This document shows, piece after piece, positions 9,703 to 61,100 of a DNA stretch of 64,000 nt; within the stretch, counting starts at the first letter, position 1, and each line of letters opens with the position of its first letter. Position numbers and translations under genes: made by a program. The notes below the pieces were generated by a model that was not told where the DNA came from, did no database searches, and was given only the letters and a program-made list of their open reading frames with translations. Origin of the DNA: Flavobacteriales bacterium (GTDB lineage: Bacteria; Bacteroidota; Bacteroidia; Flavobacteriales_F; PHOS-HE28); NCBI GenBank assembly GCA_038234075.1, contig JBBSUV010000003.1, positions 65,136 through 129,135 on the forward strand, given 5' to 3'.

Positions 9703-9919
9703 GCAAGCCGCCATCGCCAAGCAGGTGTTCAACACTACGGACGAGCAGGTGCTGGACCAGGTGAAAGCCGTGCTTGAATCGCAGAGCGATACATGGTTCC
9801 AAAGCCTGCCCGCCAAAGTGCGCAAGGACATTGAGGCCAGCTTGGCCCAAGCGGATCAGGGAGAAACGGTGAGCCACAAGGAGGCCATGAAGCAGGTGCG
9901 GGCATCGCGAAAGAAGTAA
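9683..9919 (+). CDS. type II antitoxin (putative addiction-module component)
   Basis: The ORF is 78 aa and Lys/Glu-rich. It lies immediately upstream of a ParE/RelE-like toxin ORF. The start at MTKLDLK overlaps the uvrC stop. Confidence 0.5.
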   Translation: MTKLDLKQAAIAKQVFNTTDEQVLDQVKAVLESQSDTWFQSLPAKVRKDIEASLAQADQGETVSHKEAMKQVRASRKK

Positions 9920-9954
9920 GGTGGACGCCCAAGGCGATCGCCAACTACCTCGAT

Positions 9955-10221
9955 GTGCTGAAGTGGTTGCGTATTCACTGGACTGCCAAAGAGGAGCAGC
10001 GCTTCGTTGATGATGTGGAGAAGACGATCCGGTATATCCTGAAGTATCCGCAGGGCTTCCGTAGTGCTGGCCATGAGCGTTTGCGGGAGGCTCCGATCAA
10101 GCCATACAACCTGCTTCTTTATCGGATCGACGCGAAGGCCATTGTCATCATTGGCCTGTTCGATATGCGCAAGCACCCAAAGACGCTACGGGCGCTGAAA
10201 CGCGGTTGGTATAAAGAATAA
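9955..10221 (+). CDS. type II toxin, RelE/ParE family
   Basis: 88 aa; it resembles ParE-fold toxins (KPYNLLLYRIDAKAIVIIGLFDMRKHP). The frame is open upstream (..VRWTPKAIANYLD) without a canonical start, so the true start is uncertain. Confidence 0.55.
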   Translation: MLKWLRIHWTAKEEQRFVDDVEKTIRYILKYPQGFRSAGHERLREAPIKPYNLLLYRIDAKAIVIIGLFDMRKHPKTLRALKRGWYKE

Positions 10222-29545: not shown

Positions 29546-29893
29546 TCCACCGGCACTCCACACTGGAGCAGATCGAAAGGGATTTCTGGCCCGCTGGGGA
29601 ATATCCAACGGGATTGGTAAAGCGATGTCATGAGGTTGCGGAAGGTGCCGCTCAACCGGCTCACGGTGGAGGACCTCCGTCTATTGATCGGGCAGGGCAT
29701 CGGTCTTCAATACCTTGTTCCCATAGCACTTGAGTTTCTCGAAGTAGACCCATTGGTGGAAGGTGACTATTTCCCAGGGGACCTATTGAAGAACGTACTG
29801 GCTGTGAAAGATGCATATTGGCACGAACACGTGGAACAAAAGCTCGCACTCGAAAGAATAGCTGCTCCTGTTCTCGACCGATTGAAGAAGTAG
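29542..29893 (+). pseudogene. CdiI-like contact-dependent-inhibition immunity protein, frameshifted
   Basis: The N-terminal part (MIHRHSTLEQIERDFWPAGEYPTGLVKRCHE) is in frame 1. The C-terminal part (LRKVPLNRLTVEDLRLLIGQGIGLQYLVPIALEFLEVDPLVEGDYFPGDLLKNVL) is in frame 2. The two frames switch near 29640. The ATG overlaps the pepP stop as ATGA. Confidence 0.45.
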
Positions 29894-29942
29894 TTGTCTC
29901 ACGCTCCACTTCCTCCCCCTTATCTTCGCAAGAGCAACCACA

Positions 29943-30200
29943 ATGGAAACAAGCCTGCGCATCAAGGTATCGGAATTGGACATGGATCTTTTGAACAAGA
30001 TCAAACGCTTGTTCGATAAGGACCGTGAACTCACGCTGACCATCCGCTCCAGCACGGATTTCGAGCTGACACGGTCGGAAAGCAAGAAGGTGTATCTCCA
30101 GCGCTTGGACAAGGCGATCAAGAACCTTGAAAAAGGAAATGCGGTAACGCTTTCAGAGGCTGATCTGGATGCCTTGGTGATCGAGCGCCTCAAGGCATGA
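29943..30200 (+). CDS. yefM: type II antitoxin Phd/YefM family (copy A)
   Basis: 85 aa upstream of and overlapping a YoeB toxin; 97-98% identical to the 50790..51047 copy. Confidence 0.7.
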   Translation: METSLRIKVSELDMDLLNKIKRLFDKDRELTLTIRSSTDFELTRSESKKVYLQRLDKAIKNLEKGNAVTLSEADLDALVIERLKA

Positions 30201-30466
30201 AACGCATCATCTTCGAGCAGAATGCCTATGAAGATTTCTGCGATTGGGGAATCTATGACAAAGCACGGTACATTAAGATCCACGACCTGATCAAGGCTAT
30301 CCTTCGGGAACCCTTCAAAGGAGTGGGCAAACCGGAACCATTGAAGGGAGCGCTCAAAGGCTATTGGTCCCGGCGGATCGATGAAAAGCATCGGCTGGTC
30401 TACCGAATGACCAGTGAAGGGTCTGTTGAGATAGTGAGCTGCAAAGGGCACTACGGGGATAAGTGA
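30197..30466 (+). CDS. yoeB: type II toxin YoeB/Txe family (copy A)
   Basis: 89 aa; motifs PFKGVGKPEPLKGALKGYWSRRIDEKHRLVY...GHY. Confidence 0.8.
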   Translation: MKRIIFEQNAYEDFCDWGIYDKARYIKIHDLIKAILREPFKGVGKPEPLKGALKGYWSRRIDEKHRLVYRMTSEGSVEIVSCKGHYGDK

Positions 30467-44912: not shown

Positions 44913-45800
44913 ATGGCCAGCCTGAAGGAAGTCCGCAGTCGGATCGTTTCGGTGAACAGCACCAAGCAGATCACCGCCGCCATGAAGATGGTGAGCGCGG
45001 CCAAGCTGCGCCGTGCGCAGGACGCCATCATCCGCATGCGGCCTTATGCCGAGAAGCTGAGCGTGCTGTTGAGCAACGTGAGCGCTTCCTTGGACGGCAA
45101 TGAGAACAAGTTCGCGCAGGAGCGTATCGTGAAGAACGTCCTCTTCGTGGCCATCGTGAGCAATCGTGGTCTGGCCGGTGCCTTCAATACGCAGGTGTTC
45201 CGCCTGATCCGCAAGGCCACTGCAGCAGCGGAAGCCCGCGGGGAGCGCGTACATGTGCTCTCCTTGGGCAAGAAGGCTGCCGACCTCTATCGCCGCACGC
45301 CGTGGCACGCTTCGGGCTTCCCGGAGAACCTGGCAGCGCTGTATGACGGCCTGAACTTCGACAAAGTATCACCCGTAGCTGAAGCCATCATGGCCAAGTT
45401 CGCTGACGGCGAATACGACCGCGTGGAGCTCTTCTACAACAAGTTCAAGAACGCCGCCTCCCAGGTCGTCACCGAGGAGCGCTACCTGCCCATCGAGCCG
45501 CCACAAGCGGCCGCTGAAGGAAAAGGCGCCAGCGTGAAGACCGACCACATCATGGAGCCGGACCGGCAGACCATCGTGGAGGAGATCATCCCCAAGAGCC
45601 TGAAGATCCAGCTCTACAAAGCGATGCTGGACAGCTTCGCCTCCGAGCACGGCGCCCGCATGACCGCCATGCACAAGGCCACGGACAACGCGGACGACCT
45701 CCTGAAGGACCTTCGCTTGACCTACAACAAGGCCCGCCAAGCGTCCATCACCAATGAGATCCTGGAGATCGTGGGCGGTGCTGAGGCTTTGAAGGGGTAG
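44913..45800 (+). CDS. atpG: F0F1 ATP synthase subunit gamma
   Basis: 295 aa; MASLKEVRSRIVSVNSTKQITAAMKMVSAAKLRRAQ. Confidence 0.95.
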   Translation: MASLKEVRSRIVSVNSTKQITAAMKMVSAAKLRRAQDAIIRMRPYAEKLSVLLSNVSASLDGNENKFAQERIVKNVLFVAIVSNRGLAGAFNTQVFRLIRKATAAAEARGERVHVLSLGKKAADLYRRTPWHASGFPENLAALYDGLNFDKVSPVAEAIMAKFADGEYDRVELFYNKFKNAASQVVTEERYLPIEPPQAAAEGKGASVKTDHIMEPDRQTIVEEIIPKSLKIQLYKAMLDSFASEHGARMTAMHKATDNADDLLKDLRLTYNKARQASITNEILEIVGGAEALKG

Positions 45801-45974
45801 GTTTCACCTATTTCTGATTGCCATGCACAGTACAACAGTTGTGTCATGCCGTACTTCGATGCCGAACCTCATGTATGAGTTCCAATGATGAGTATAAAAC
45901 ACATTGGAAGCCATCGGATCGATCAGGCTAGAAATAGCAGATAAGCGAGGTATGTCGAAGCCAACAGGGCATTA

Positions 45975-47105
45975 CTAATCTCTACGCTTATTAACCTCTG
46001 CTTCCATCCGGGCTAGATTCACGCTCTTGCGATCATTGTCAGCCTTTAGGATTTTAGTGAGCTGTTGCACAAACATTGATGTATCTGCATAATAGTTCGG
46101 ATAGGCCTTCTTAAGGGCTTGGACAGACCCTGCCGATACAAGCACCACTTGGACACCTTTCTTGCCTCTGGTGCGTTCTTCCGCCTCCTCATATCGCTCA
46201 GTTGCTATGGCACTCTCTCTTTTAGAGAAGCCCGTCACAGTGAGGATTTTGCTATCCGGATCAAGTACCATCAAGTAGTACTCAGCTCGTTTAAGTTCAG
46301 GAGGAAGCTTGAAGAGCGCACTGAAGTTCATGAGCTTCGCTGCCACATTCAAATGCAAAGACAGACTAGCTGTTTCCTTTATCAATTCAACTGGATCAGT
46401 GGGTACTCCTTCAATTGCACTTTCAGTCTTTTCCTCAATCGCAAAAACCGAACTAACCAGCTGAAAGAATCGGTCCCATTCCGGTTCGCCTCTGCCGCTC
46501 TTGATCGCCGTTCCGTTCATAGTATCAACCGTCTCCACAGCAGTTGCCCAACAGTGCTGAAGGTGAGTTCGGAGTTGAATTTCGACTAGCTGGTCATCAA
46601 AAACATCGGTGGAGGATCCTTTGTATTTGTAAATGAGGTGGACACTCCTGTATCCGGATTTCTTCGGCTTAATCAAGTAGTTGTCAATCTTGACCAACTC
46701 ATGATCAATTGTTGCCGTCGACCGGTAGTAGTTCAGAATATCATTCACTTGCTTCATGTCTGATACAATGGCCCTACATCCGGCTATATCCTGCATTCGC
46801 TTCAGGCTCATGTGCTGTTGCTCCCGCAGTTTATTCAGTATTGAGGGTGTCCGCTTGAGTCGTTGAGCAACAATCGCTGTCCGACCGAACTTCCTAGCAA
46901 CCCAACGAAGTGTTACTTGGAATGTGTTCATCGGATAACTGTGGCAAGCCCTCCAATTGTCAAGTACTTCTTGTGCGTAAAGCCTTTCAGCCTCAGTAAT
47001 ATCCTCAGTTATCAGGAGCTTCCCAGCCTTTTCGATCTGATTGCGAGAATACTTACGCTCTGCCCAGTTTGCCATACTCCTTAGTGTCTTGGCAAGATAG
47101 AACAA
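45975..47105 (-). CDS. RelA/SpoT-domain nucleotidyltransferase with C-terminal extension (fused toxSAS / CapRel-like defence candidate)
   Basis: 376 aa in a locally low-GC segment. The synthetase motifs are DIAGCRAIV, SGYRSVHLIY and EIQLRTHLQHCWA. There is no hydrolase domain. The C-terminal domain is ~170 aa and uncharacterised. Confidence 0.7.
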   Translation of the reverse strand: MFYLAKTLRSMANWAERKYSRNQIEKAGKLLITEDITEAERLYAQEVLDNWRACHSYPMNTFQVTLRWVARKFGRTAIVAQRLKRTPSILNKLREQQHMSLKRMQDIAGCRAIVSDMKQVNDILNYYRSTATIDHELVKIDNYLIKPKKSGYRSVHLIYKYKGSSTDVFDDQLVEIQLRTHLQHCWATAVETVDTMNGTAIKSGRGEPEWDRFFQLVSSVFAIEEKTESAIEGVPTDPVELIKETASLSLHLNVAAKLMNFSALFKLPPELKRAEYYLMVLDPDSKILTVTGFSKRESAIATERYEEAEERTRGKKGVQVVLVSAGSVQALKKAYPNYYADTSMFVQQLTKILKADNDRKSVNLARMEAEVNKRRD

Positions 47106-47126
47106 TGCATCGTGAATATCCCATCT

Positions 47127-47192
47127 CCCACGCTCGGCTGGGTCAACAATATTTCCAGGCGCTCGGCTAAACGATAACCTCCCGGACCTGCC
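47127..47192 (+). repeat. island direct repeat copy 1 (~70 bp)
   Basis: CCCACGCTCGGCTGGGTCAACAATATTTCCAGGCGCTCGGCTAAACGATAACCTCCCGGACCTGCC. It is the most divergent copy and lies just 5' of the RelA/SpoT gene. Confidence 0.7.
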
Positions 47193-47399
47193 ACATGCCG
47201 TCCGGCGAACCGTCGGCCATCAAGGTCACGACATCAAGGTGCTCTCCCCCTCCGTCCCGCCGTTCGTTCTGAAAGCGCTTACACAGTTGGGATATGCCTA
47301 GAGTACGAGTGAAGAAGCTCGCGCCAGAGAGGGGGTGAAGACGTACGAGCTAGGACAGACTTGCAACTCGTAATGCTGATCCGAGGGCACGGGTCCAGA

Positions 47400-48650
47400 T
47401 CATTTGACTACAACGGTTTGCACCACTGTACTACCCGCATTCTGGACGCGCAACGAATACGTGCCCTTGGCAAACCTTGAAAGGTCGATCAACCGAATGT
47501 TTCTGGTCCCATTGCCGTTGAAGACCTCATTCTGCACCAACTGCCCCTTCACGTCGAAGACTTGCAGTGAGACCAAGCCCGACAGCTCTGTTTCCAATGT
47601 GAACTGGCCGGCATTAGGATTTGGGTAGACCCGGACGTTCCCGTTGACCGACATTTCATTCCCGTTGATCCCTTCACCGAGATCAACTGTGGTACAAAGG
47701 CCAGCGGTGTTGATGCATCCGTCCACATCGACATAGGTATAGGTCACACTGTGGGTTCCAACACCCGCCATTCCAGGGTCGAAAGTGCTACCGGATACCC
47801 CTGGGCCGATAAAGATACCTCCAGCAGGAACCCCAATCAATTCAACAATGCCATCAGTTGTGGTGTAAGATGCATCTAGACCAGTAAGGGAAACCGGCGT
47901 CTGACTACGACACGGGGATGCGGGCGTACCAGAGAACAGCCCCGTGATTTCTTGTTGGGATAATGCCCGGTCCCATATGCCAATATCGTCGATCAGTCCG
48001 CCAAATCCATCGAAGCCGGATATCGATTTCCTACCAATGTTCCAAGTTGTAGTAGTGCTTAATGGTGCATTGTTAATGCCTGTGTCTGTAAGGACACCAT
48101 CAATATATAGCGCGGCCTCACCGGCATTATAGTCAGAAGTGAATAAAATGTGGTGCCATTCGTATTTTGTAATTGCGAAAGTGGATGGCCATACTTGAGA
48201 ACCGGACGCGGCATATGAACATTTGATTGTTACCGTCGAGCCTATATCACTATTTACTATTATCCCTGGCTCACCGGAGGAGATTACTCTCGAATTGCTT
48301 GTAGCTGCGTCAAACCACACCCAACAGGAGATTGAGATTCTATCTGGCGACAGTTGGGGTAACGTACCTAAATCAATATAGTTGGAGCTGCTTAAGGAGT
48401 TGGGCCAGCTATAGGCACTATTCGAACTCCCAAAACGATCACTGGTTAGTGTGAGGGCTCCATTCACAGTTCCGTTATTCCCTGATCCGCTTTCATCATT
48501 CGCATCACCATTGAATGGCCACCAACCAACAAGGCCATTGGTGGGGATATAACTAGGGACTTGCGCAAACGCAAGGTTTGACAATACAATGATGGCAAGT
48601 GTTGCTAAGAGTGTCCTTCTTGCTCCCATTTTGGGTTTGTTTTGTTTCAA
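47400..48650 (-). CDS. secreted LamG/concanavalin-like domain protein with type-A T9SS C-terminal sorting domain
   Basis: Signal peptide (LLATLAIIVLSNLAFAQ), a LamG-like region, and a C-terminal Por_Secre_tail (VYPNPNAGQFTLE...GTYSLRVQ). Confidence 0.65.
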   Translation of the reverse strand: MKQNKPKMGARRTLLATLAIIVLSNLAFAQVPSYIPTNGLVGWWPFNGDANDESGSGNNGTVNGALTLTSDRFGSSNSAYSWPNSLSSSNYIDLGTLPQLSPDRISISCWVWFDAATSNSRVISSGEPGIIVNSDIGSTVTIKCSYAASGSQVWPSTFAITKYEWHHILFTSDYNAGEAALYIDGVLTDTGINNAPLSTTTTWNIGRKSISGFDGFGGLIDDIGIWDRALSQQEITGLFSGTPASPCRSQTPVSLTGLDASYTTTDGIVELIGVPAGGIFIGPGVSGSTFDPGMAGVGTHSVTYTYVDVDGCINTAGLCTTVDLGEGINGNEMSVNGNVRVYPNPNAGQFTLETELSGLVSLQVFDVKGQLVQNEVFNGNGTRNIRLIDLSRFAKGTYSLRVQNAGSTVVQTVVVK

Positions 48651-48747
48651 TCAGATTGGTGGGGACTATACGGTTTTGGCTGGAGAGATAATCCAACATT
48701 GGTCGAATGTAGTGCAATGACGTACAAGCGAGCAAATTACCCTCGAA

Positions 48748-48822
48748 CCCCACGCTCGGCTGCGTCATCAATAGTTCCCGGCGCTCGGCTCAACGATAAC
48801 CTCACAGACCTGCCGAGTGCCC
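48748..48822 (+). repeat. island direct repeat copy 2 (~75 bp)
   Basis: CCCCACGCTCGGCTGCGTCATCAATAGTTCCCGGCGCTCGGCTCAACGATAACCTCACAGACCTGCCGAGTGCCC, followed by a GC hairpin. Confidence 0.75.
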
Positions 48823-49002
48823 AGTTCTTTTCCGCCGAGCCTGCCCCGGAGCCGCATCCGGGGGCGGGCTCCGCCGATCTTGCCATTCAATCTCTCCTTC
48901 CTTAGGGCATGCGCGTGGTCCGAGGCATATTGGACCCGCCCAGCGTCAAGAACAACCCCTTAACTTTACGTCTCAACCATCCGTCAGACTGACCAACAAG
49001 CC

Positions 49003-49242
49003 ATGACCACTCTAGAGCTAAGGGCCGAGATCAACCAGTTGCTGAGCCACGAGAACAACACTTCCGTGCTGGAGGCGATACGTATGCTTTTGCGCAGGGA
49101 AGAAGCGGATGTTGATGATGACTTCACCGATGAGGAGATCGCCGAGCTCGAGCAACGCCGCGCGCGCTATCTGAGCGGAGAGAGTAAGCCCCATACCGTG
49201 GAAGAATCCATGCGTCTTGCACGCGAAGGGTTCAAGCGGTGA
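49003..49242 (+). CDS. type II antitoxin (addiction-module component)
   Basis: 79 aa; acidic; 4-bp overlap with downstream ParE-like toxin. Confidence 0.55.
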   Translation: MTTLELRAEINQLLSHENNTSVLEAIRMLLRREEADVDDDFTDEEIAELEQRRARYLSGESKPHTVEESMRLAREGFKR

Positions 49243-49529
49243 ATTTCACGGTTCAAGTCCTACCGGAAGCTACTGAGGAGGTCGGGGTGATCTTCGGCTA
49301 TTATGAAGACAAAAAATCCGGTTTGGGGAAACGCTTTCAACAAGCACTGAACGCGTGTTACGAGGATCTGGCGCTCGATCCGTGGAGGCAGAAGCGCAAG
49401 GGCGTTTTCCGGCATGCCATGATCCAAAAGTTCCCCTATCGCGTGGTGTATGAAGTTCATGGCAAACGTGTGATCGTTTACCAAGTGCGCCACACCAGCC
49501 GCAAACCCAGTAAGAAGTTCGGGCCGTAA
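49239..49529 (+). CDS. type II toxin RelE/ParE family
   Basis: 96 aa; KFPYRVVYEVHGKRVIVYQVRHTSRKP. Confidence 0.65.
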   Translation: MNFTVQVLPEATEEVGVIFGYYEDKKSGLGKRFQQALNACYEDLALDPWRQKRKGVFRHAMIQKFPYRVVYEVHGKRVIVYQVRHTSRKPSKKFGP

Positions 49530-49554
49530 TCACAGGCTGACCAAGCCGCTGAGG

Positions 49555-49628
49555 AGACCCCATCCCCGCGCTCAGCTGGGTCAACAATAGTTCCCGGTGC
49601 TCGGCTCAACGATAACCTCACAGACCTG
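49555..49628 (+). repeat. island direct repeat copy 3 (~74 bp)
   Basis: CCCCGCGCTCAGCTGGGTCAACAATAGTTCCCGGTGCTCGGCTCAACGATAACCTCACAGACCTGCCGAGTGCCC, followed by a CCGCC..GGCGG hairpin. Confidence 0.75.
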
Positions 49629-49801
49629 CCGAGTGCCCGGCTCCTGTCCGCCTCTGGCGGGCTCTGCGATACGGATATGAGTGTTGAAGATGGCCGGTGG
49701 CCGCAAGAGTTGGGCACTCGGGAACTCCGGATGAGACTCCGGGGCCGAGCGCCGGGTTCAGAGAGACTCTGCGTTCCGGACGGGCCAAACTGTCATAGCA
49801 C

Positions 49802-50110
49802 TCAACGCCTTCTTTCTTCAAACCGGCTTTTCAGGTCCATCCTTTCGTGTAGGACCCTGATGATCTCGATCTCCAGTTCGTTCAAGGCCATGAAGAATAC
49901 GATATGCCGACCGGTGCGCACTCCTTTCAGGCCCGCACGGATCTCGTCATAGTTCCTGCCTGAACCAGGGTTGTCGGCCAATTCTTGAAAAGCATCCAAA
50001 AAATCCCGGTAGTATTTGTCTGCTTGCTTTTCTGACCATCGATCGAATGTGAAATTCCAGATGTCCCCTAGATCTCCGATAGCCTTGTTAGAGAGGATAT
50101 ACCTACCCAT
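49802..50110 (-). CDS. parE: type II toxin ParE
   Basis: 102 aa; MGRYILSNKAIGDLGDIWNFTFDRWSEKQADKYYRDF...GRHIVFF. Confidence 0.75.
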   Translation of the reverse strand: MGRYILSNKAIGDLGDIWNFTFDRWSEKQADKYYRDFLDAFQELADNPGSGRNYDEIRAGLKGVRTGRHIVFFMALNELEIEIIRVLHERMDLKSRFEERRR

Positions 50111-50354
50111 TCGTTCCCCTCTTGGCCTTCAGTTCCGCAAGATGTTCCTTCGGATCGAAGTCCTTGGCGAGCCCACTCTGCACGCCCTCTTCAATGGCCA
50201 TGCGCAAAGCAGATATTTTACTCTCCTCTTCCTCCAATAACCGCAGCGCGGCGCGGATCACCTCGCTGATATTCCCGTAGCGGCCTTCGGTTACGCTCCG
50301 TTGAATGAACTGCTCATAATAGGAGCCGAGTGAAACGGGGGTGTTCTTGCTCAT
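50103..50354 (-). CDS. parD: type II antitoxin ParD
   Basis: 83 aa; GRYGNISEVIRAALRLLEEEE; 8-bp overlap with parE. Confidence 0.75.
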   Translation of the reverse strand: MSKNTPVSLGSYYEQFIQRSVTEGRYGNISEVIRAALRLLEEEESKISALRMAIEEGVQSGLAKDFDPKEHLAELKAKRGTNG

Positions 50355-50523
50355 TGTTCAATGCTTCCATCCCAAAGGTAACGTGCTTAGGGACATTCCG
50401 GCAGTCTTCAGCCTGCTGCGCGGAACCACCCCGTTCCTTCCTCTTGGATAGCTTCGCCTTTCGAGGCCGGTCACAAAATGTGACCACCTTATGAAACGCT
50501 GGCCTCCGATATGGAAGCCCTCG

Positions 50524-50793
50524 TCACTTATCGCCGTAGTGCCCTTTGCAGCTCATTACTTCTACCGATCCTTCACTGGTCATTCGATAGACCAACCGGT
50601 GCTTTTCATCGATCCGTCGGGACCAATACCCTTTGAGTGCTCCTTTCAATGGTTCCGGCTTACCCACGCCTTTGAAGGGTTCGCGCAGGATAGCCTTGAT
50701 CAAGTCGTGGATCTTGATGTACCGCGCTTTGTCGTAGATGCCCCAGTCGCAAAAATCATCGTAGGCGTTCTGCTCGAAGATAATGCGCTTCAT
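50524..50793 (-). CDS. yoeB: type II toxin YoeB/Txe family (copy B)
   Basis: 89 aa; 2 aa substitutions relative to copy A. Confidence 0.8.
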   Translation of the reverse strand: MKRIIFEQNAYDDFCDWGIYDKARYIKIHDLIKAILREPFKGVGKPEPLKGALKGYWSRRIDEKHRLVYRMTSEGSVEVMSCKGHYGDK

Positions 50794-51047
50794 GCCTTGA
50801 GGCGCTCCATCACCATAGCGTCCAGATCAGCCTCTGAAAGTGTGACGGAGTTTCCTTTTTCAAGGTTCTTGATCGCCTTGTCCAAGCGCTGGAGGTAGAC
50901 CTTCTTGCTTTCCGAGCGTGTCAACTCGAAATCCGTACTGGAGCGGATGGTAAGCGTGAGCTCGCGGTCCTTGTCGAACAAGCGTTTGATCTTGTTCAAC
51001 AGGTCCATGTCCAACTCCGATACCTTGATGCGCAGGCTTGTTTCCAT
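50790..51047 (-). CDS. yefM: type II antitoxin Phd/YefM family (copy B)
   Basis: 85 aa; 3 aa substitutions relative to copy A. Confidence 0.7.
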   Translation of the reverse strand: METSLRIKVSELDMDLLNKIKRLFDKDRELTLTIRSSTDFELTRSESKKVYLQRLDKAIKNLEKGNSVTLSEADLDAMVMERLKA

Positions 51048-51153
51048 TGGGCTTAACTCTTGCGAAGATAGGAGATCATCCCAAGGGCCTGAAGATCCAA
51101 CTTCGCAAGGTTATCGTTACTCCCTCCGTGTTGGTAGTCCTTCCGCAAGCGAT

Positions 51154-52137
51154 TTAGAACGCACTACTGGTCATCCTTCTTGAGCGACCCGAGATCGTTC
51201 CGTAATACACGATCGAGAATTCGAATGCGCCGTTGTTGTTCGTGTAGGTGCGCAGCGGTGAGGTATTGATGTCGTAGCTGAAGCGGTACATGTTGTTACC
51301 GTGCTTGATGCCGACCTGTGCGATAACAGCATCATCCAAACGATAGGAGCAGCCTGCCACCACGCCATACACACCGTTCATCAGCGCCACCTGGCCTAAG
51401 AGGCCGGCCTGGATCATCTGGTCCGGGCCTTGGCGCATGTAGAGCCCTTGCGGGATGATGTCCACACCTTCGGCTACCGTGATGTACGCACCCGCGTTCA
51501 CCGAATAGCGGATCGGCAGGTCGCTCTTCTCCTCGCGGAAAATGGATTCGTCCGGCGTGGTGACGTGGAAGAGCGCGAAGTTCCCGAAGGGGTTGATCAT
51601 CTTGTTCCTGTTGGTGGAACGATAGGCCACACCAGCACCGAGGTCCAGCATCATCCTTCCCTTCTTCTGGAACGCTTCCCCTGAGGGCAGGTCGTTGTCA
51701 AAATGGTCCCGGTCGTACTGGGCGTCCCAAACCAACTTGTTGTCGTTCACCTTCTTGTAGATCAAGCCCAGGTTCACTCCCGCTGAAAGCGTATAGTACT
51801 TGGATGACGAGACGTTGTACGCGCCGGTAAAGCCCGCCTGGAAGTTGTTCAACACGTTGGCCATGTTGTAGTTGTTCAGGTAGGCCCCGAAGCCGTACTT
51901 CCTGTCCATGGACATGTCCACCGCGAAGGCCGTGGTGAGGAAGTTGCTCGCCAAGCTGTTCCACTGGCTCCGCAGGTTGCTGCTCACCCGGAAGTCGCTG
52001 TTCTCATACATGCCCGTGAGCGCCGGGTTCAGGAGTACCGAGGCCGCATCGTACTGGCTCAGCTGTGCATCCTGGGCACGCGTGGCACCAGCTCCGAAGA
52101 GCATGATCGCCAAGAGGAGGGTTGCTTTCGTTCTCAT
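51154..52137 (-). CDS. T9SS PorP/SprF-family outer-membrane beta-barrel protein
   Basis: 327 aa with a signal peptide, FAVDMSMDRKYGFGAYLNNYNMANV and a terminal aromatic residue. It lies immediately downstream of a type-B-CTD giant adhesin, as with sprB-sprF. Confidence 0.75.
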   Translation of the reverse strand: MRTKATLLLAIMLFGAGATRAQDAQLSQYDAASVLLNPALTGMYENSDFRVSSNLRSQWNSLASNFLTTAFAVDMSMDRKYGFGAYLNNYNMANVLNNFQAGFTGAYNVSSSKYYTLSAGVNLGLIYKKVNDNKLVWDAQYDRDHFDNDLPSGEAFQKKGRMMLDLGAGVAYRSTNRNKMINPFGNFALFHVTTPDESIFREEKSDLPIRYSVNAGAYITVAEGVDIIPQGLYMRQGPDQMIQAGLLGQVALMNGVYGVVAGCSYRLDDAVIAQVGIKHGNNMYRFSYDINTSPLRTYTNNNGAFEFSIVYYGTISGRSRRMTSSAF

Positions 52138-52150
52138 TGTTCTGTTCTCT

Positions 52151-55100
52151 TTAGCGGATCAAAGTCACTTTACCCGAGCGGTCAAAGTCCTGGCCTTCCA
52201 CCGATGTGGCGACGACCGTGTAGACGTACACCCCGTTGATCTCCGGCTTCCCGTTGTGGGTGCCGTCCCATCCGAACTCAGGGTCGCTGGTCTCGAAGAC
52301 CATTTCGCCCCAGCCGTTGAAGACCTTCAGTTCCATGGTCTTGAAGGGGCCACCGCGGACGAAGAAGACGTCGTTCACTCCATCGCCGTTCGGGCTGAAA
52401 GCGTCCGGTAGTTTCGGTGGCACGATCTTGTTCTCGGTGATCGCGATGAGCATGGAATCGGAGGCGGTGCAGCCTGCAGCATTGGAGACCGTCTGCACGA
52501 TGATGTACTGACCTCCCTGGGTATAGGTGTGCGTGGGATCCTGGGAGAGCGAACCCTGACCATCACCGAAGTTGTAATGCCAGCCGTTGCCTCCGAAGGA
52601 ATTGTCCTCGAACACGATCGACTCACCAGTGAAGGCATCCCCGGTGAAGGAGAAGCCTGCCGTGGGTGCGAACATCACCTCCACTACTTGGCTGGTGGTG
52701 GCGCTACAGCCGTTCTGTGCGAATACTGTGAGCGTTACCGGATACTGTCCCGCTCCAGCGAAGGCGTTGCCAGCCTGTTGACCAGCTGCAGTGCTGCCGT
52801 TGCCGAAGTCCCAGTTCCAGCCGATGATGGGCGAACCCGTGGTGGTGCTGGCATCGGTGAAGGCCGTGTTCGATCCTGCACAAGCGTTGCCGAAGTTGAA
52901 GGCAGCGTTCAGCGGGTTCACGAACGACAGCTTCACGGTATCCACCGCTGCGGCGCAGAAGAGGTCACCCGTGGTGGTGAGGAACAGTTCCACTTGTTGC
53001 AATTGGGAGTCGCCGGTGCTGGGCTGGTAGGTGGCATTGGCCGTGGTGTTGTTCGGCAGGAAGATGCCGGAACCGTTGGTGGTCCATTGCAAGCCCGTGG
53101 CGCCGTTGTAGATACCTGCCAGCTGCACATCCGCCGAGGCGTCGCAGGTGGTAATGTCCGTGCCTGCGTTCACCGTGGAAGGCTGGTGCATGTTCACTGC
53201 CAGCGTATCGGTGTGCGCGGGGCAGCCCATGTTACCGGTGGTGGTGAGCACGAAGCTCAGTTGCTGGAACACCAGGTCCGGTGCGCTCGGCACGTAGCTC
53301 GCGTTCAAGGCATCGGCATTCGGCAGGAAGGTGCCTGTGCCGTTCGTGGTCCACGTGCCACCGCTCACTCCTGTGATGTTTCCGGCCAGTTGGACGATGC
53401 CACCATTGGCACACACGTCCAGGTCAACACCAGCGTTCGCGATCCGTGTGGGGCCCACTCCGATGAAGAGCGAATCCGATGCGTTGCCGCAGGTGCCCGT
53501 GCCGTAGGCCGTGAGGATCAGGTGTACGCCACCTGCGATGCTGTCATTGGCCGTAGGTGTGTAAGTAGCGTTCAGCGTATTGGCATTGGGGCTAAAGGTG
53601 CCCGTGCCTGCGGTGATCCATCGCACCAACGAATCGTTCTGCGCGGTGCCATTCAGTTGGATCGGCGACAGGCCATTGCAGAGCAACAGGTCCGTGCCGG
53701 CGTTCACCGTTGGTGGCACATGGTAGCTCACCACCAAGGTGTCCTTTCCGGCGGGGCAGCCCGCGTTGTTGGTAGTGCTCAGCACCAGGGAAATGTCACC
53801 GATCACGAAGTCCGCTGGGCCCGGGATGTAGGTGGCGTTGAGCGCCATAGCTGAAGGGCTGAAGGAACCCGTACCCGTGGTGCTCCACATGCCCGTGGTG
53901 GTACCTGCAACTGCGCCGTTCAGCGAAATGTTAGGCGCCGTGCTGCAAGTGATCACGTCTTGACCGGCCTGTGCAGAGAGCCCGCCGCCGAAGGTGATGG
54001 TGAGTGCATCCGACACCGCGCTGCAAGGCAGGGTGCCCGTGGTGGTCACGGTGAGCGTCACGGTTCCCAGTGTGCTATCAGCTACGCTTGGGTAGTAGAG
54101 CGTGGCCAAGGCATTGGCATCGAAGAAGGTGCCCGTGCCCGAAGTCGTCCACGTACCGCCAGGCGCATTGGCTGCATTGGCGGCCAACTGTACAGGTGCG
54201 CTCGTGCAAGCGACCACATCGCTACCGGCCATGATGTTCGGCACGGCCCGCAGGTTCAACGTCATGGCATCGGAGGAAGCCGCGCAGGAGCCGTTGGTGA
54301 TCGTAGTGATCGTCAACTGCACTGAACCCGCTGCGATATCCGCATTGCTGAGCGTGTAGGTAGCGTTCGGATCCGTGTTGTTGCTGAAGGATCCCGAGCC
54401 GGAAGTGCTCCACTGGATGCCTTGTGCTCCGCCGCTGAAGTTGCCCGCGAGCTGGGCGATCGGTGAGTTGACACAGAGGCTCTGATCCGGACCGGCGTAA
54501 GCAAAGCTGGTGTTACCGAAGGTCAGCGTCATCTGATCGCTACCGCTGGGGCAAGTGCCCGTGTTGGTAGCGGTGAACGTGAGCACAACCGAGCCGTTGG
54601 CCACATCGGCCGCGGAGAAGAAGTACTGCGCGTTGAGCACATCGGCATTGGGCTGGAAGGTGCCCGATCCGGTGGCTGTCCAAGTGCCCGAAGGCGATCC
54701 GTTCTGAACGGTGCCCAACAGATTGGCATGGTCGGAGAGCACACACACGCTCTGGTCCGGCCCAGCGCTCACGATGATTCCAGCGGTGAGATAGATCGTC
54801 ATCGCATCGCTCACCGCGCCGCAGTTGCCGTTGTTCAAGGAGGTGAGCGTGAAGTTGATCTGACCCGCAGCGATGTCCGCAGCACTTGCCGTGTACGTGG
54901 TGTTCAGTGCACCTGCGTTGGCGATGGTGCCGGTGCCTGTGGTGGTCCACTGGCCCACCGTGGTGATGCCGGATATCATTCCGCTCAGGTTGAACTGGCT
55001 CACTTGGTCACAGTAGGTCTGGTCCGCTCCTGCGTTCACATAAGGTGCTGGTGTCAGCTGCAGCGTCATGGCATCGCTGGCGTTGTTACAGCTGTTCACC

Positions 55101-58100
55101 GCGTTCAGCGTCAAGGTCAGCGAGCCGATGGCGGTGTCGATGTTGCTGGGAATGTAGGTGGGCGTCAGCACGCTGTTGCTCGGATAGAAGGAACCCGTGC
55201 CGGAGGTGGTCCACTGCACTTGGGTGGCATCGCCGCTGAGCGTTCCAGTGAGCTGCACCGTGGCGTTGTTCGCGCAGAAGCTCAGGTCCGGACCAGCGTT
55301 CACGTTGCCGGAAGGTTGGATGGCGATATACACCGTATCCACAGCCGCGGTGCATGCACCGGTGTTGGTGGCGGTGAGCACCAGCCTCACACCGTGTGCT
55401 AAGGAATCCTGGGCGCTGGCGTGGTAGATGTTGGCGAGCGCATCAGCCGGGTTGGCGAAGCTGCCCGATCCCAACGTGCTCCACACGCCGGTGGAAGAGG
55501 CACCGCTCACTTGGCCATTGATCAGCACGTTCAGGTTACCGAAGCAGACCACTTGATCGGCCCCAGCATTCGCGCTGGAGACCGGCACGATGGTCACGCT
55601 CATCTGATCCATGGCATTGTCACAGCTGTTCACGCTCCAGGTGAAGGTGAGCGTGCCTTGGGTCGCATCGCCCGGAGCCACTTGGTACACCGCGTTCGCA
55701 GCACTGGCGTTCGGGTTGAAGGAACCTGCACCGTTCGTGGTCCAGTGACCTTCAGTGGCGTTACCGCTGATGCTACCGGCCAGTTGCACGGTGGCTTGGC
55801 TTGCGCAGATGCTTTGGTCAACACCGGCGTTGGCGACGGCGTTCGGAAGGATGGTCAAGGTCATCATGTCCGACACCACGTTGCAGAGACCGTTGTTGGT
55901 GGAAGTCAAGGTGAGATCCACAGTGCCGTTGAGTGAATCCAGTGCACTGGCCATGTACGTGGCATTCAGCGTGGTGGCGCTCGGGAAGAAGGTGCCTGTG
56001 CCGCTGGTGGTCCAGGTACCGGTGGTGGATCCACCTTGCACGCTGCCCGTCATCGGCACTTGCAGTGCACTGGAACAGGTGGTGACGTCCGGACCGGCGC
56101 TCACCACAGGGGCGGGCGTTACGGCGAGCATCACTTGGTCCACTACGGAGAGGCAGTTGCCATTGCCAGTGGTGGTGAGCGTAAGCGCCACGCTGCCGGT
56201 CTGCAGTTCGAAGCTCGAAGGCACGTACTGTGCGTTCAGTGTCTGTGCGTTCGGCGTGTAGCTGCCGAGGCCACCGCTCCATTGTGCGCCACCGGCCACC
56301 GTGATCGCACCGTTCAGCGTTACCAGCGGGTTGTTGGCGCAAACGTCCATGTCCATACCGGCATTCACTGTGGGCGCTGGCGTGAAGGTGATGGCGAGAG
56401 TATCGCGCACAGCGAAGCAATTGCCGTTGCCGGTGGACGAGAGATAGAGGTTCAAGCTACCCGAAGCGATCTCCAATGCCGTGGGCGTGTACACGGGACT
56501 GAACACGTTGTTGGAAGGGCTGAAGGTGCCGCTTCCACCGGACCATGCACCACCGTTCGCGTTGTCCACGTTTCCGCTGAGCTGCACTGCCGCGTTGTTG
56601 GCGCACACAGCCTGATCCATGCCGGCATTCACCACAGGTGCATCGGTGAAGTAGACCGTCATCTGGTCGACGACTGCAGCACAGAATGTGGTGCCCGTGG
56701 AAGACAGCGTGAAGGTGATGGAACCTGCCGTTACCTCCGCCTCAGTGGGCGTGTACTGCAGCGCCAGCGAGGTGTTGTTCGGGAAGTAGTTGCCATTTCC
56801 TCCGGTCCATTGGCCGCCCGAGGCGTTGCCCACAAAGCCGTTCAGCTGGAAGTTCGGGTTGTTGCCGCAGATCTGTTGATCCGGTCCGGCGTTCACCACA
56901 GGAACAGGATCCACGATGATCACGAGGCTGTCGCGCACCGCATTGCAATTCCCGTTGCTGGTGGAGGTGAGCACCAAGGACATCTGTCCAGCGGCGATCT
57001 CAAGCGCAGTAGGCTGGTAAGTGGCGTTCAGCGTCTGGGCGTTAGGCGTGAAGACACCTGCACCGCCGCTCCACGCGCCGCCATTGGCCACGGTGATCGC
57101 ACCGGCCAATTGCACCTCGGAACTGTTGGCGCACACATGAGCATCCAAGCCCGCATTCACGATTGGCGCCGGAGTAAAGTCCAAGCGCACGGAATCGCGG
57201 GAGGCCAAGCAGCCGCCGTTGCCGGTCGAGGTGAGATAGAGCCACAATCCGCCTGCGCCTACTTCAGCAGCGCTCGCCGTGTACACCGCGTTCAGTGCAG
57301 TGGCATTCGGACTGAAGGATCCAGCACCGCCGCTCCATGTACCGCCGGTAGCATTGGTCACCTGGCCATTCAACGAGGCAGCGATGTTGTTGGCGCAAAG
57401 GGTTTGTGCGGCACCGGCCTCCACTACTGGAGCGGCGGTGATGTTGATGGTCACTTGAGCACTCACTGCATTGCAAAGTCCGTTGCCGGTGCTGGTCAAG
57501 GTGACCGTGGCCGTGCCTGCAATTACTTCAGCAGCGGAAGGTGTGTAGATGGCGCTCAGGCTGTTCGCATTGGGCGAGAAGCTGCCTGCACCGGTCCATG
57601 TTCCGCCCGTAGCGTTCTGCACCGATCCGGCCAGTTGCACACTCGGGTTGTTCGCGCAGGACTGCATGGGTTGACCAGCGTTCACCACTGGTGCTGGCGC
57701 GATGGTCACCACCATCTGGTCGTTCACGGCGCTGCACAGCGCATTGCCCACTGTCGTCAAGGTCAACGTGACAGTGCCTGCGGAGATCTCCGCTGCGGTC
57801 GGTGTGTACACTGCATTCAGGATGCCGCTGTTCGGCGAGAAGCTGCCCGCTCCACCGCTCCAGATGCCGCCCGTAGCTACGGTAACAGATCCGTTCAATT
57901 GCAAGGTGGCGTTGTTCGCGCAGATGCTCGCGTCCAGTCCAGCGTTGGCCGTGGGCGCAGGTGTGAAGGTGTAGGTCACTTCGTCGGTTACCGCCGTGCA
58001 ACCGCTGTTGCCCGTGGTGGTAAGCACCAGCGTGGCGCTCCCTGCGGCGATCTCACCTTGTGAAGGTGTGTACACCGCGTTCAGTGCATTGGCGTTCGGG

Positions 58101-61100
58101 CTGAAAGTTCCTCCTCCGCCGCTCCACGTTCCGCCATTGGCGACGGTGACACTGCCGGCCAATTGGATAGCCGCATTGTTCGCGCAACGCACACCATCCA
58201 CACTGGCGTTGGCCGTCGGCGAAGCGGTGAAGGTGATCAGCACTTCATCAGATACCGGCACACAATTGCCGTTACCGATAGTGGTCAAGGTCAAGGTCAT
58301 GGTACCGGCTGCGATCTCCGTTGCGGTCGGGATGTACACCGCGTTCAGCGATGCGATGGAAGGCGTGAAAGTGCCTGCACCACCGCTCCATTGTCCGCCA
58401 CCAGCACCGCTAACGGAACCACCGAGCTGCACTTGTGCATTGTTCGAGCAGACGAAGAGGTTGTTGCCCGCGTTGGCGGTTGGCGAAGCAATGATCGTGA
58501 TCGTCATCTGGTCGTTCACCGCGTTGCACAAGCCGTTCTGGGTGGTCGTGAGCGTGAGCGTTGCAGTACCCAGGGCCACCTCAGCAGGATTGGGGTGGTA
58601 GGTCGCGTTCAGCGTGTTCGCATCGGGCGACCAAGTGCCACCGCCGCCGCTCCATACACCGCCAGTGGCGATGGTCACCGCGCCGTTCAGGATAACTGAA
58701 GGATCGTTGGCGCAGACGGTGCGGTCCACTCCTGCATTCACCGTTGGGCTTTGCGAGAAGTAGATCGTCATGGCATCGTTCACCGGTGTGCAGGTGCCGT
58801 TGCCAGTGCTGGTGAGGGTAAGCGTCACTGAGCCATTCGCGAGTTCAGTAGTGCTTGGGGTGTACACCGCATTCAGCGCGTTGATGCTTGGTGAGAAGCC
58901 GCCCGTGCCACCGCTCCAGCTGCCGCCCGTGGCGTTGCTGATGGAGCCGGTCAGTTGGACACTGGAGTTGTTCGAACAAACCGTGCGATCGATACCAGCC
59001 TCCACAACTGGTGCAGGTGCGAGGGTGATCACCACTTGATCGGACACGACGTTGCAAGTTCCGTTGTTCGTGGAGGTCAGTGTCAATGTGACGGTGCCTG
59101 CGGCGATCTCACCCAAGGTCGGGGTGTAGGTAGCGTTCAGGTTGTTCGTGCTGGGGTTGAAAGTGCCCGAGCCGCCGCTCCACACACCGCCACCCGCGTT
59201 GTTCACGACACCAGCCAGTTGTGCGGTTGGGTTATTGGCGCACACGGTGAAGTTGTTGCCGGCGTTCACAACCGGTGCAGGAGAGATCGTGATCACGATC
59301 TGGTCTATCACCGGATTGCTATTGCCATTGCCCACGGAGGTGAGCGTAAGCGTCACGCTACCTGCGGCGATCTCGGCCGCTGAGGGATAGTAAGTGGTGT
59401 TGAGTGAAGTGTTGTTCGGCGTGTAGCTGCCGGTGCCGCCACTCCAGATACCACCCGTTGCGATGGTCACGCTGCCACTTAGGACAACGACCGCATTATT
59501 GCCGCAGATCACTTGGTCCGGACCGGCGTTGGTCGAGGGCGCATCGCTGAAGGTGATGATCATGGCATCGGTGGCCGCAGCGCAGGAACCGTTGCCCGTG
59601 GTGGTCAAGGTCAAGGTCACGCTGCCGGAAGCGATCTCCGCTGGCGTGGGCGTGTACACCGCGTTGGTGGTCGTGTTGTTCGGGTTGTAAGTACCCGCGC
59701 CGCCGGACCATACCATACCGCTGGCGATGGAATAGGAACCAGCCAAGGTGGTCGCTGCATTGTTGGCGCTTACAGATTGGTCAACGCCTGCATTGGCTAC
59801 CGGAGCCGTGGTGAAGGTGATCTGCACTTGGTCGGATACCGCTGCGCAATTGCCGTTGCCAGTGGTCGTGGCAGTTAGCGTCACCAAGCCGTTGGACACC
59901 TCGATCGTCGAGGGTGTATAGGTGATGTTCTGTGCGGTGCTTCCTGGTGAGTAGAGGCCGCTTCCACCGGACCACTGCACGCCAGTGGCCACCGTGATGG
60001 CGGCGCTCAGCATCGCGCTACCGTTGTTCCCGCAGAGGGTCTGGTCCACACCGGCGTTCACTGTCGGTGCAGGCGTGATAGTGAAGTGCACCTGGTCCGT
60101 TACCGGGTTGCAGGTGCCGTTTCCGGCCGAGGTGAGCGTGAGTGTGAAGCTACCAGCGGTGATCTCTGCCGCATTCGGTGTGTAGGTTGCATTGAGTGTG
60201 ATGCTGTTCGGGCTGTACGTACCGTTGCCGCCGCTCCAAACCCCGCCCACTGCTCCGTTCACGCTTCCGTTAAGGGTGACTGCTGGCGAATTCGCACAGA
60301 CAATGCCATCCAGTCCTGCGTTCACGATCGGCGCAGGTGTGTACGTGATGATGCGGGTATCGCTGGCAGGTGTGCAGTTGCCGTTGCCCGTGGTGGTCAA
60401 GGTGAGCGTCACCATGCCCGCAGCGATATCGCCAGGTCCGGGGTTGTAGGTCGCGTTCAATGTGTTCGCGTTCGGCGTGAAGCTGCCGGTGCCACCGGTC
60501 CAAGTACCGCCAGTTGCGATCACCACGCTGCCGTTCAGGGCCACGCTGCCATTGTTCGCGCAACGGGTCACATCAGGTCCTGCGTTCGCGGAAGGCGCAT
60601 CGGTGAAATTGAGCACCACTTGATCGATAGCCGCATTGCAAAGGCCGTTGCCGGTGGTGGTGAGCGTAAGCGTTACGCTGCCGTTGGTGATCTCCATCGC
60701 TGTCGGCGTGTAGATCGCGCTCATGTTCGTGGTGCTCGGATCGAAGGTGCCGTTGCCGCCGCTCCAGATTCCGCCAGTTGCCACGGTGAAGGCACCGGAC
60801 AGGGAGGTCACTGGATTGTTGGCGCAAAGCACACGATCAGAACCGGCGTTCGCCGTAGGTCCGGGAGTGATCGAATAGGAAACTTGATCGCTCACTGCGG
60901 TGCAATTGCCATTGCCCACCGTGGTAAGAGTTAGTGTGACGCTGCCTGCAGTACGCTCCGCAGCGCTGGGCGTGTAAGTGGCGTTGAGTGTGCTACTGTT
61001 CGGGCTGTAGGTACCGGTTCCTCCGCTCCAGATGGCTCCGGAAGCACCGTTGACAACACCGGCCAAGATGAGCGCCGAGTTATTCGCGCAGACCGTTCCG

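Follow-up and report, generated by a model that had tools for sequence, protein, structure and literature searches.

What are the short repeats doing that stand between the gene modules of a variable bacterial locus, and do they have a part in shuffling those modules? The question arises in a 64,000-nucleotide stretch of a Flavobacteriales metagenome-assembled genome (MAG; GCA_038234075.1, contig JBBSUV010000003.1), the whole of which we call the window. Here, three copies of a non-coding, hairpin-forming repeat lie among defence-related and toxin–antitoxin (TA) genes. A preliminary description, made from the letters of the window, had taken the repeats as signs of serial site-specific integration. 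We find that the slot holding them is hypervariable, with genes gained, lost and reordered between close relatives, and that the repeats stand at module joints in a single orientation, with breakpoints, duplications and deletions anchored at their ends. Our tentative reading, to which we assign a probability of roughly 0.45, is that they are locus-specific junction elements acting as portable recombination joints in a defence/TA hotspot. What drives the joining is probably homology or the hairpin itself, and not an integrase linked to the array. The analysis covered 64 kb of the source MAG and, for each relative, a locus of about 20 kb.

A search of the window with the 21-mer GCTCGGCTCAACGATAACCTC, allowing up to three mismatches, gave three matches, all on the + strand (at 47161, 48783 and 49599), against a chance expectation of 0.01 from shuffled sequences. 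The first copy, c1 (47120–47200), is the most diverged and lies between two − strand genes, one encoding a LamG-domain protein and the other a RelA_SpoT-domain protein that is the PADLOC defence candidate PDC-S33. The second, c2 (48748–48836), consists of a 5′ half-copy (CGCTCGGCTGCGTCATCAATAG) and then a hairpin (48780–48821), and the third, c3 (49558–49652), has its first base 29 nt past the stop codon of a + strand ParE gene. The three copies are spaced about 1.6 kb and 0.8 kb apart, start to start, and separate, in order, the PDC-S33 (RelA/SpoT) gene, the LamG gene, an antitoxin–ParE pair and a ParDE pair. The same-orientation direct repeats of the preliminary description are thus borne out, as are its gene calls (RelA_SpoT, Laminin_G_3 with Por_Secre_tail, antitoxin with ParE, and ParD with ParE), its two direct and one inverted half-sites, its GC hairpins after the second and third copies, and its view that the repeats delimit modules, since copies stand at module boundaries and the genes of the slot are gained, lost or reordered among relatives. 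Its measurements needed revision: alignment and BLAST put the repeat unit at about 85–89 nt instead of 70–75 nt, and the near-identity of c2 and c3 stands at 93.3% when 75 nt are aligned and at 89.9% across 89 nt, slightly below the ~95% first given. Copy c1 is 89.4% identical to c2 and 87.7% identical to c3. Three features had gone unmentioned, namely an inverted hairpin copy, a third TA pair (YoeB with its antitoxin) and the low GC content of the surrounding island.

The element consists of a partial 5′ duplicate and a hairpin with a stem of 10–13 bp and a loop of 22 nt. In each copy, the 5′ part (CCCCATCCCC-GCGCTCGGCTGGGTCAACAATAG) partially duplicates the core that follows (TTCCCGGCGCTCGGCT-CAACGATAACC-TCACAGACCTGCCGAGTGCCC). 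Inspection of the sequence reveals two direct GCTCGGCT half-sites and one inverted GCCGAGTGC half-site; in c2 and c3 the second and third of these pair with each other, giving a hairpin whose stem has 10 bp and whose loop has 22 nt. The core stem in c2 and c3 is GGCGCTCGGC / GCCGAGTGCC, with one G·T pair, and the loop of c2 contains CAACGATAAC. In c1, folding shows the 3′ arm decayed to GCCACATGCC. A 9-bp imperfect terminal inverted repeat (GCGCTCGGC / GCCGAGTGC) is also present. Directly 3′ of c2, outside the shared repeat, lies a GC-rich hairpin (48837–48875, +), and a smaller hairpin follows c3. Folds of single copies are unexceptional (z of about −1.2). The inverted copy, d (49713–49757, −), carries the same stem as c2 and c3 (GGCGCTCGG/CCGAGTGCC) around an unrelated loop of 21 nt. 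It is placed 75 nt downstream of c3, and c3 and d together form a long-range palindrome of about 165 nt (−108.9 kcal/mol, z −3.3). A decayed ortholog of d is present in the locus of a sister species (assembly L007).

A stretch of 39 nt, from GCTCGGCT to GAGTGCC and including the loop, is identical in c2 (48783–48821), c3 (49599–49637) and the copy of the other species (L007 13123–13161), whereas the orthologous DNA around it is only 84–92% identical (8–16% difference). This suggests purifying selection or recent conversion. The sole stem substitution in c3, a C to T change, retains pairing only as a G·T wobble, and only on the + strand.

The array occupies an island of 5.3 kb (45.8–51.15 kb) with a GC content of 46–55%, compared with about 61% in its flanks. 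T9SS (type IX secretion system) genes, together with near-identical AtpG proteins named by NCBI, mark the host as an uncultured member of the Flavobacteriales. The island is bounded by the stop codons of atpG (44913–45800, +), the last gene of the ATP synthase operon, and porP/sprF (51154–52137, −), such that the slot is a terminator-to-terminator gap between two convergent core operons. Homology with relatives stops 3 nt past the atpG stop codon and resumes at 51154. Five modules lie between these limits. The first is the 366-aa RelA_SpoT-domain protein (45975–47075, −), a full-length match to PDC-S33 (E 1e-119), and the second a LamG-domain protein (Laminin_G_3; 47400–48629, −) with a C-terminal sorting domain (Por_Secre_tail) of the type IX secretion system (T9SS). 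The other three are TA pairs: a 79-aa antitoxin, A79 (49003–49242), with a 96-aa ParE toxin (49239–49529) on the + strand (49003–49529); a ParD antitoxin (50103–50354) with a ParE toxin (49802–50110) on the − strand (49802–50354); and an 85-aa antitoxin, A85 (50790–51047), with a YoeB toxin (50524–50793), also on the − strand (50524–51047).

We collected the same slot from relatives by way of AtpG homologs at 89–94% identity and compared their contigs. Between the same atpG and porP genes, four different contents were found. The first is that of the window. The second is shared by seven sister-species assemblies with 94% identical AtpG (L007–L012 and L019), which carry HEC-01B, HEC-01A, a truncated YoeB, one or two YoeB copies with A85, A79-ParE and a 65-aa open reading frame (ORF). 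At the same AtpG identity, L013 holds two GEVED-domain genes, a truncated T9SS gene, a truncated YoeB, A85, A79-ParE and the 65-aa ORF. At 89% AtpG identity (L014–L018), the slot contains nothing more than a 221-aa ORF and a gene for T9SS cargo. In a further locus, with AtpG at 85% (L021), synteny is lost. Conserved flanks thus enclose accessory sets that differ between close relatives, which is what defines a defence/TA hotspot. The TA modules are reordered, duplicated or truncated among these close relatives, and the only blocks that the window shares with L007 inside the slot, A79-ParE and YoeB-A85, stand in reversed order. We considered whether the 65-aa ORF of L007 might be a remnant of ParD or ParE and found no similarity. 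The position beside atpG that PDC-S33 holds in the window is taken in the sister species by HEC-01A/B (L007 10930–12858, −; an AAA_21 ATPase and a DUF4276-like protein, matched by PADLOC). This alternate occupancy of one slot lends circumstantial support to the view that the candidates PDC-S33 and HEC-01 are defence genes.

The sister species carries elements of the same family at comparable places. One copy of the type found in the window, u800, is 94% identical to c2 and to c3 and lies just right of HEC-01A. It stands beside HEC-01 in the same relative position as c1 beside PDC-S33, and the DNA from the atpG stop codon to the copy is wholly different in the two species. A variant of 120 nt, u1024, is found 3′ of each YoeB and folds into a long two-box hairpin (CCCGCCAGTC-TT-CCCGGCC ... 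GGCCGGG-GC-GACTGGTGGG, z −3.3). Another variant, u2385, lies upstream of A79-ParE, where the window carries c2. A shared CAACRATAA core with reassorted arms was considered as the relation between these types and rejected: the arms of the c and u types are homologous with insertions and deletions, and the variant in L013 is an internal deletion.

A profile hidden Markov model built from six elements and run with filters off over the window and 20 loci (about 450 kb) matched only inside the slot and always on the + strand, in agreement with a scan for motifs and stems. The remaining 58 kb of the window had no copy, nor did the flanks of the relatives. Scans of public collections, which required exact 20-mers, yielded nothing among 185,579 species-representative GTDB genomes but a chance match within a coding sequence of Chromatiaceae and, in JGI metagenomes, only the orthologous locus of the sister species and the same chance Chromatiaceae sequence. 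Nothing similar was found in IMG/VR (three patterns) or, by blastn, in phage genomes and plasmids, and Rfam gave no family, whether with gathering thresholds on the whole window or in E-value mode on the island. Within the sequence searched, the element family is private to one slot in a clade of uncultured Flavobacteriales. In the slot lacking TA genes, remnants akin to the family are still present in the DNA following atpG (L014 10890–11440), among them ACACTCGGCTGGGTCAATACCCGTTCCCC and GCTCGGC-TTTTT-GCCGAG, as well as a 55-nt internal direct repeat. This hints at a long residence of the elements in the slot.

The elements also part company with the genes they adjoin. The same A79-ParE module occurs in more distant Flavobacteriales (L005 and L006) with no element around it, and the repeat is therefore not part of that TA module. 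In the closer relatives, A79-ParE has a different variant element upstream and none downstream. Since the module is found with a different element or with none, the repeats are not fixed cassette ends.

Rearrangements are repeatedly anchored at element ends. Three truncated genes abut the left end of u1024, (T/C)CCCCGCTCCCGCCAGTC, namely the 3′ half of a YoeB gene, A85 and a T9SS signal-peptide stub, the last of which derives from a gene found intact in L014. Microhomology of 2–5 nt joins each interrupted gene to the C-run at this end. A perfect tandem duplication of 564 bp, comprising u1024, YoeB and a partial A85 (A85′), begins at the same left end (L007 13308–14440). The unit is present in two copies in L007–L011 and L019 and in a single copy in L012; its number therefore differs between assemblies of the same species. 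In L013, the u1024 hairpin has suffered an internal deletion. Compared with L007, the window has an insertion made up of c3 and about 90 nt more, placed after the ParE stop codon and before d. When read on the minus strand, most modules bear one element at their 3′ side. Gene truncation and microhomology at the element ends look more like illegitimate or hairpin-stimulated recombination than like precise site-specific exchange.

If the elements act as recombination joints, modules would enter the slot by exchange, with the conserved flanks and the shared elements of about 85–120 nt serving as homology. The hairpins would also provoke illegitimate events at the stem base, by slippage or a switch of template, and such events would duplicate, delete or truncate neighbouring modules. 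The three copies in the window would stem from at least two acquisitions or rearrangements, beside a copy that relatives also keep right of the defence system. A dedicated linked recombinase would not be needed for any of this, and the elements may additionally serve as insulators or terminators between modules. Several observations weigh against this account. The joints between YoeB and ParD and between PDC-S33 and atpG have no element, and the microhomology argument comes from three junctions only. The core of 39 nt, loop included, is invariant in c2, c3 and the other species in spite of the divergence of its surroundings; passive homology patches need no such invariance, which points to recognition by a sequence-specific protein or to a function in RNA. 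In addition, c3 has the look of a separate, sharply bounded insertion, and with the extent of sequence examined, further copies or an unlinked recombinase may lie elsewhere. As an explanation of how genes are shuffled in this slot, recombination joints remain the account we favour, at somewhat less than even odds and with several rivals standing.

In an alternative account, the elements are recognition sites of an unlinked, trans-acting site-specific recombinase. They would then make up a platform of the integron or att-accretion kind whose hairpin sites are non-canonical and at which modules are precisely inserted and excised. The arrangement has an integron-like grammar, with one 3′ element and one orientation for most modules, and the order of modules is shuffled between genomes. 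Furthermore, the flanks on both sides of the elements are non-homologous in at least four contexts, the 39-nt hairpin and loop do not vary across copies and species, and the wobble kept on one strand in c3 hints at a single-strand structure. Against this, no integrase, resolvase, recombinase or transposase was found among the 44 ORFs of the window (Pfam; the best 25 families per batch were listed, and a very weak match could be hidden), which extends 45 kb to the left and 13 kb to the right of the array, nor did precomputed Pfam annotation of the relatives' loci, 20 kb each, include any recombinase or transposase; the genes seen were housekeeping, TA and defence genes. The breakpoints truncate genes and show microhomology instead of clean site-to-site joins, A79-ParE occurs with different elements or none, and viral contigs, phages and plasmids hold nothing similar. 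We consider such a recombinase unlikely. If it does exist, a precise deletion between c2 and c3 would yield an allele joining the left flank of c2, via the shared 39-mer, to GGCTCCTGTCCGCC. More improbable still is an undescribed integron-like platform of the Flavobacteriales, in which an unlinked recombinase would read the 39-nt hairpin as single-stranded DNA without R or L boxes and shuffle defence, TA and T9SS cassettes in a safe harbour between convergent essential operons. Of the serial site-specific integration first proposed, the placement of the repeats at module joints and their common orientation hold up, and the integration itself is unproven, with no recombinase found and with truncations at microhomologies. 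The companion proposal of tandem accretion at a regenerated att site is not supported: the repeat duplicates neither a tRNA nor either gene end (atpG, porP), no tRNA or tmRNA lies in the window, there is no integrase, and identity along atpG is continuous. The preliminary description had itself named two findings that would speak against it, the lack of an associated recombinase and dispersal of the repeat throughout the genome like a REP (repetitive extragenic palindrome) or MITE (miniature inverted-repeat transposable element). The former is what we see in the 64-kb window and in the relatives' loci; as to the latter, there are no dispersed copies in the sequence searched. Its remark that the repeat does not fit the canonical attC pattern agrees with our own scan. 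In an attC, the inverted core sites R″ (RYYYAAC) and R′ (GTTRRRY) pair 50–150 nt apart at the foot of the folded site, and a second complementary pair, L″/L′, with extrahelical bases extends the imperfect palindrome over the entire site. Searching 45800–51200 on both strands for pairs of RYYYAAC ... GTTRRRY heptamers turned up nothing for c1 and c2. One pair was found around c3 (49604/49715, 112 nt apart) and one inside the LamG coding sequence; these four strand-specific listings amount to two sites, compared with a shuffle mean of 1.2. That the repeats are attC sites left over from a canonical integron, in a cluster of attC sites lacking integrase (CALIN), is scarcely credible. TA cassettes are typical of chromosomal integrons, and at least two same-orientation sites within about 4 kb, by which integrons are recognised, are present here as the three + strand copies, 0.8–1.6 kb apart. 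We nonetheless rejected membership, as the c1 and c2 copies have no R″/R′ pair, the flanking L candidates of the c3 pair (CCTCACAG / GGTGGCCG) are not complementary, the conserved CAAC is located in the hairpin loop and not at the stem base, the genes are of mixed orientation with upstream regions of their own, and there is no IntI. Integrons are, moreover, very rare or nearly unknown in Bacteroidetes (PMC9024848).

The repeat may instead be a cis-acting RNA or DNA expression element (a terminator, insulator, mRNA stabiliser or operator), kept by selection and without a causal role in rearrangement. Its conserved hairpin and its intergenic placement are consistent with this, the copies lying 3′ of minus-strand modules and c3 close behind the plus-strand ParE, and palindromes of the REP type downstream of genes do act as RNA elements (PMC3733652). 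However, the hairpins have no U-tract, a scan with promoter and terminator consensuses gave nothing on the repeats (the promoter consensus being that of sigma-70, which is unfit for Bacteroidota promoters), the single-copy folds are unexceptional and Rfam has no match. The position relative to genes is also inconsistent, as gene starts diverge around c2 while c1 lies immediately upstream of a promoter region, and the coincidence of breakpoints with element ends would be left unexplained. We regard this as an unlikely account, a little below that of a trans-acting recombinase. A miniature element of the MITE or REP/REPIN kind (REPIN, an inverted doublet of REPs), mobilised by a transposase encoded elsewhere (e.g., a REP-associated tyrosine transposase, RAYT, or one of the IS200/IS605 type) and landing three times in this region, would fit the discrete units with sharp ends, the insertion of c3 relative to L007, the 9-bp imperfect terminal inverted repeat and the inverted c3–d doublet, which resembles a REPIN. 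The 4-bp pairs flanking c2 (CCCA/CCCA) and c3 (CCCG/CCCG) could be target-site duplications, yet none are found at c1 or u800, leaving candidates at only two of four copies. The confinement of the element to the slot, both here and in the relatives, and the lack of any true match among the species genomes also disagree with a dispersing element. REPs are defined by a length of 20–40 bp, a GTAG or CGTC tag and a link to RAYTs (PMC3733652); our element is extragenic and palindromic as they are, but its unit of 85–120 nt exceeds theirs two- to fourfold in length, its hairpin foot has no GTAG or CGTC tag and no Y1 or other transposase is encoded in the window. We think this reading doubtful. Finally, mis-assembly of the MAG could have stitched unrelated fragments together at a shared repeat. 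Contigs from an independent assembly (Logan, run SRR24807090) do end within c2 and c3, as would be expected if the 39–40-nt exact repeat split the assembly graph there, and the path from c2 through A79-ParE to c3 is supported by the MAG assembly alone. The same contigs, however, reproduce 45638–48812 (atpG, PDC-S33, c1, LamG and part of c2) and 49609–50880 (part of c3, d, ParDE and YoeB) at 100% identity, and in the sister species an array of this kind, with elements of this family and at the corresponding place, recurs in seven independent assemblies. An artefact of this kind is very improbable.

Some further features of the window deserve mention. At the right edge of the island, a 42-nt fragment in direct orientation (51070–51110, +) is about 85% identical to an internal part of atpG (45580–45621), and an inverted AACGATAACC motif follows it directly. 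The idea this fragment raises, that of an integrative element replacing the 3′ end of atpG, was rejected, as there is no discontinuity of identity along atpG. The nearest full-length homolog of the LamG protein is 49% identical, with one partial match of 70% over 54% of the query, and the locus of the LamG homolog (L020) has an unrelated context and is free of elements. A second A85-YoeB pair lies outside the hotspot (29630–30466, +), beside an ORF of the CdiI_3 immunity type, and is 88.6% identical in nucleotide sequence to the hotspot copy. A possible fourth family member 3′ of this second YoeB (about 30.5 kb, in a flank with CAACGGTAG) was dismissed because its similarity was not significant (p 0.03–0.9). 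Beyond porP/sprF, a giant T9SS adhesin of the CHU_C/PKD type (52151–63979, −; more than 3,942 aa) runs off the window. It contains about 24 tandem domain repeats of about 264 nt (88 aa) at 60–75% identity, and its orthologs in relatives range from about 3,000 to 6,600 aa, indicating that the number of repeats varies. Among the otherwise housekeeping genes at 1–20 kb of the window are also an ORF of the 23S rRNA intervening-sequence-protein family (9856–10176 region) and one for a PolB-like 3′–5′ exonuclease (377–1105).

How modules enter and are shuffled in defence/TA hotspots outside integrons and prophage or satellite sites is poorly understood, especially in Bacteroidota. The present locus is compact and tractable in this respect: its flanks are both conserved, it occurs with at least four alternative contents, and hairpins of a family private to it mark the joints. 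If the elements only supply homology and fragile hairpins, it would be an example of the modular evolution of a defence island without a recombinase. If an unlinked recombinase recognises them, the locus would represent a new cassette system. In both cases the repeat can serve as a marker with which to find such slots in metagenomes of Flavobacteriales.

Several known systems invite comparison. In Neisseria, minimal mobile elements are alternative gene sets occupying one slot, exchanged through homologous recombination in the flanks without a dedicated recombinase, and small repeats of the dRS3 and Correia types mark the borders of variable regions. The alternative gene sets described here, in one slot between conserved genes and with small repeats at the borders, are alike in this respect. 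However, the Neisseria repeats are genome-wide families whereas ours seems confined to a single locus, and natural transformation is not known for this host. The pdif sites of Acinetobacter, 28-bp XerC-spacer-XerD sequences arranged as inverted pairs, bound resistance or TA modules and are served by a recombinase encoded elsewhere. Our modules are similarly small, often TA pairs, and bounded by short sites, but the repeats are direct and about 85 nt long and lack the 11-6-11 layout; inspection of the repeats revealed no dif-like 11-6-11 palindrome. With tandem accretion of integrative elements and cis-mobilizable elements (CIMEs), the locus has in common that direct repeats part successive low-GC accessory DNA beside a core gene, and it differs from them in that the repeat copies neither a tRNA nor the 3′ end of atpG or porP and that neither edge carries an integrase. 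Integrons and CALINs come closer: they too have same-orientation structured repeats, modules of 0.8–1.6 kb, TA and defence cargo, a shuffled order and, in the case of CALINs, no local integrase. Here, however, there is no R″/R′ at the stem base in c1 and c2, there are no L boxes and no long imperfect palindrome spans the site; genes lie in both orientations, junctions truncate genes with microhomology, and the host belongs to the Flavobacteriales, from which integrons are almost unknown. In Proteobacteria, REPs and the bacterial interspersed mosaic elements (BIMEs) and REPINs composed of them are likewise short, extragenic, imperfect palindromes that lie mostly downstream of genes and sometimes form inverted doublets that fold into larger hairpins, as c3 and d do, and REPs are hot spots for duplications and rearrangements. 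They are present in tens to hundreds of copies genome-wide and are usually tagged, whereas the element described here is untagged, 85–120 nt long and seen at one locus. What we have, then, are repeats at the junctions of a variable gene slot, nearest to a CALIN in their grammar and to palindromes of the REP/BIME type in their substance.

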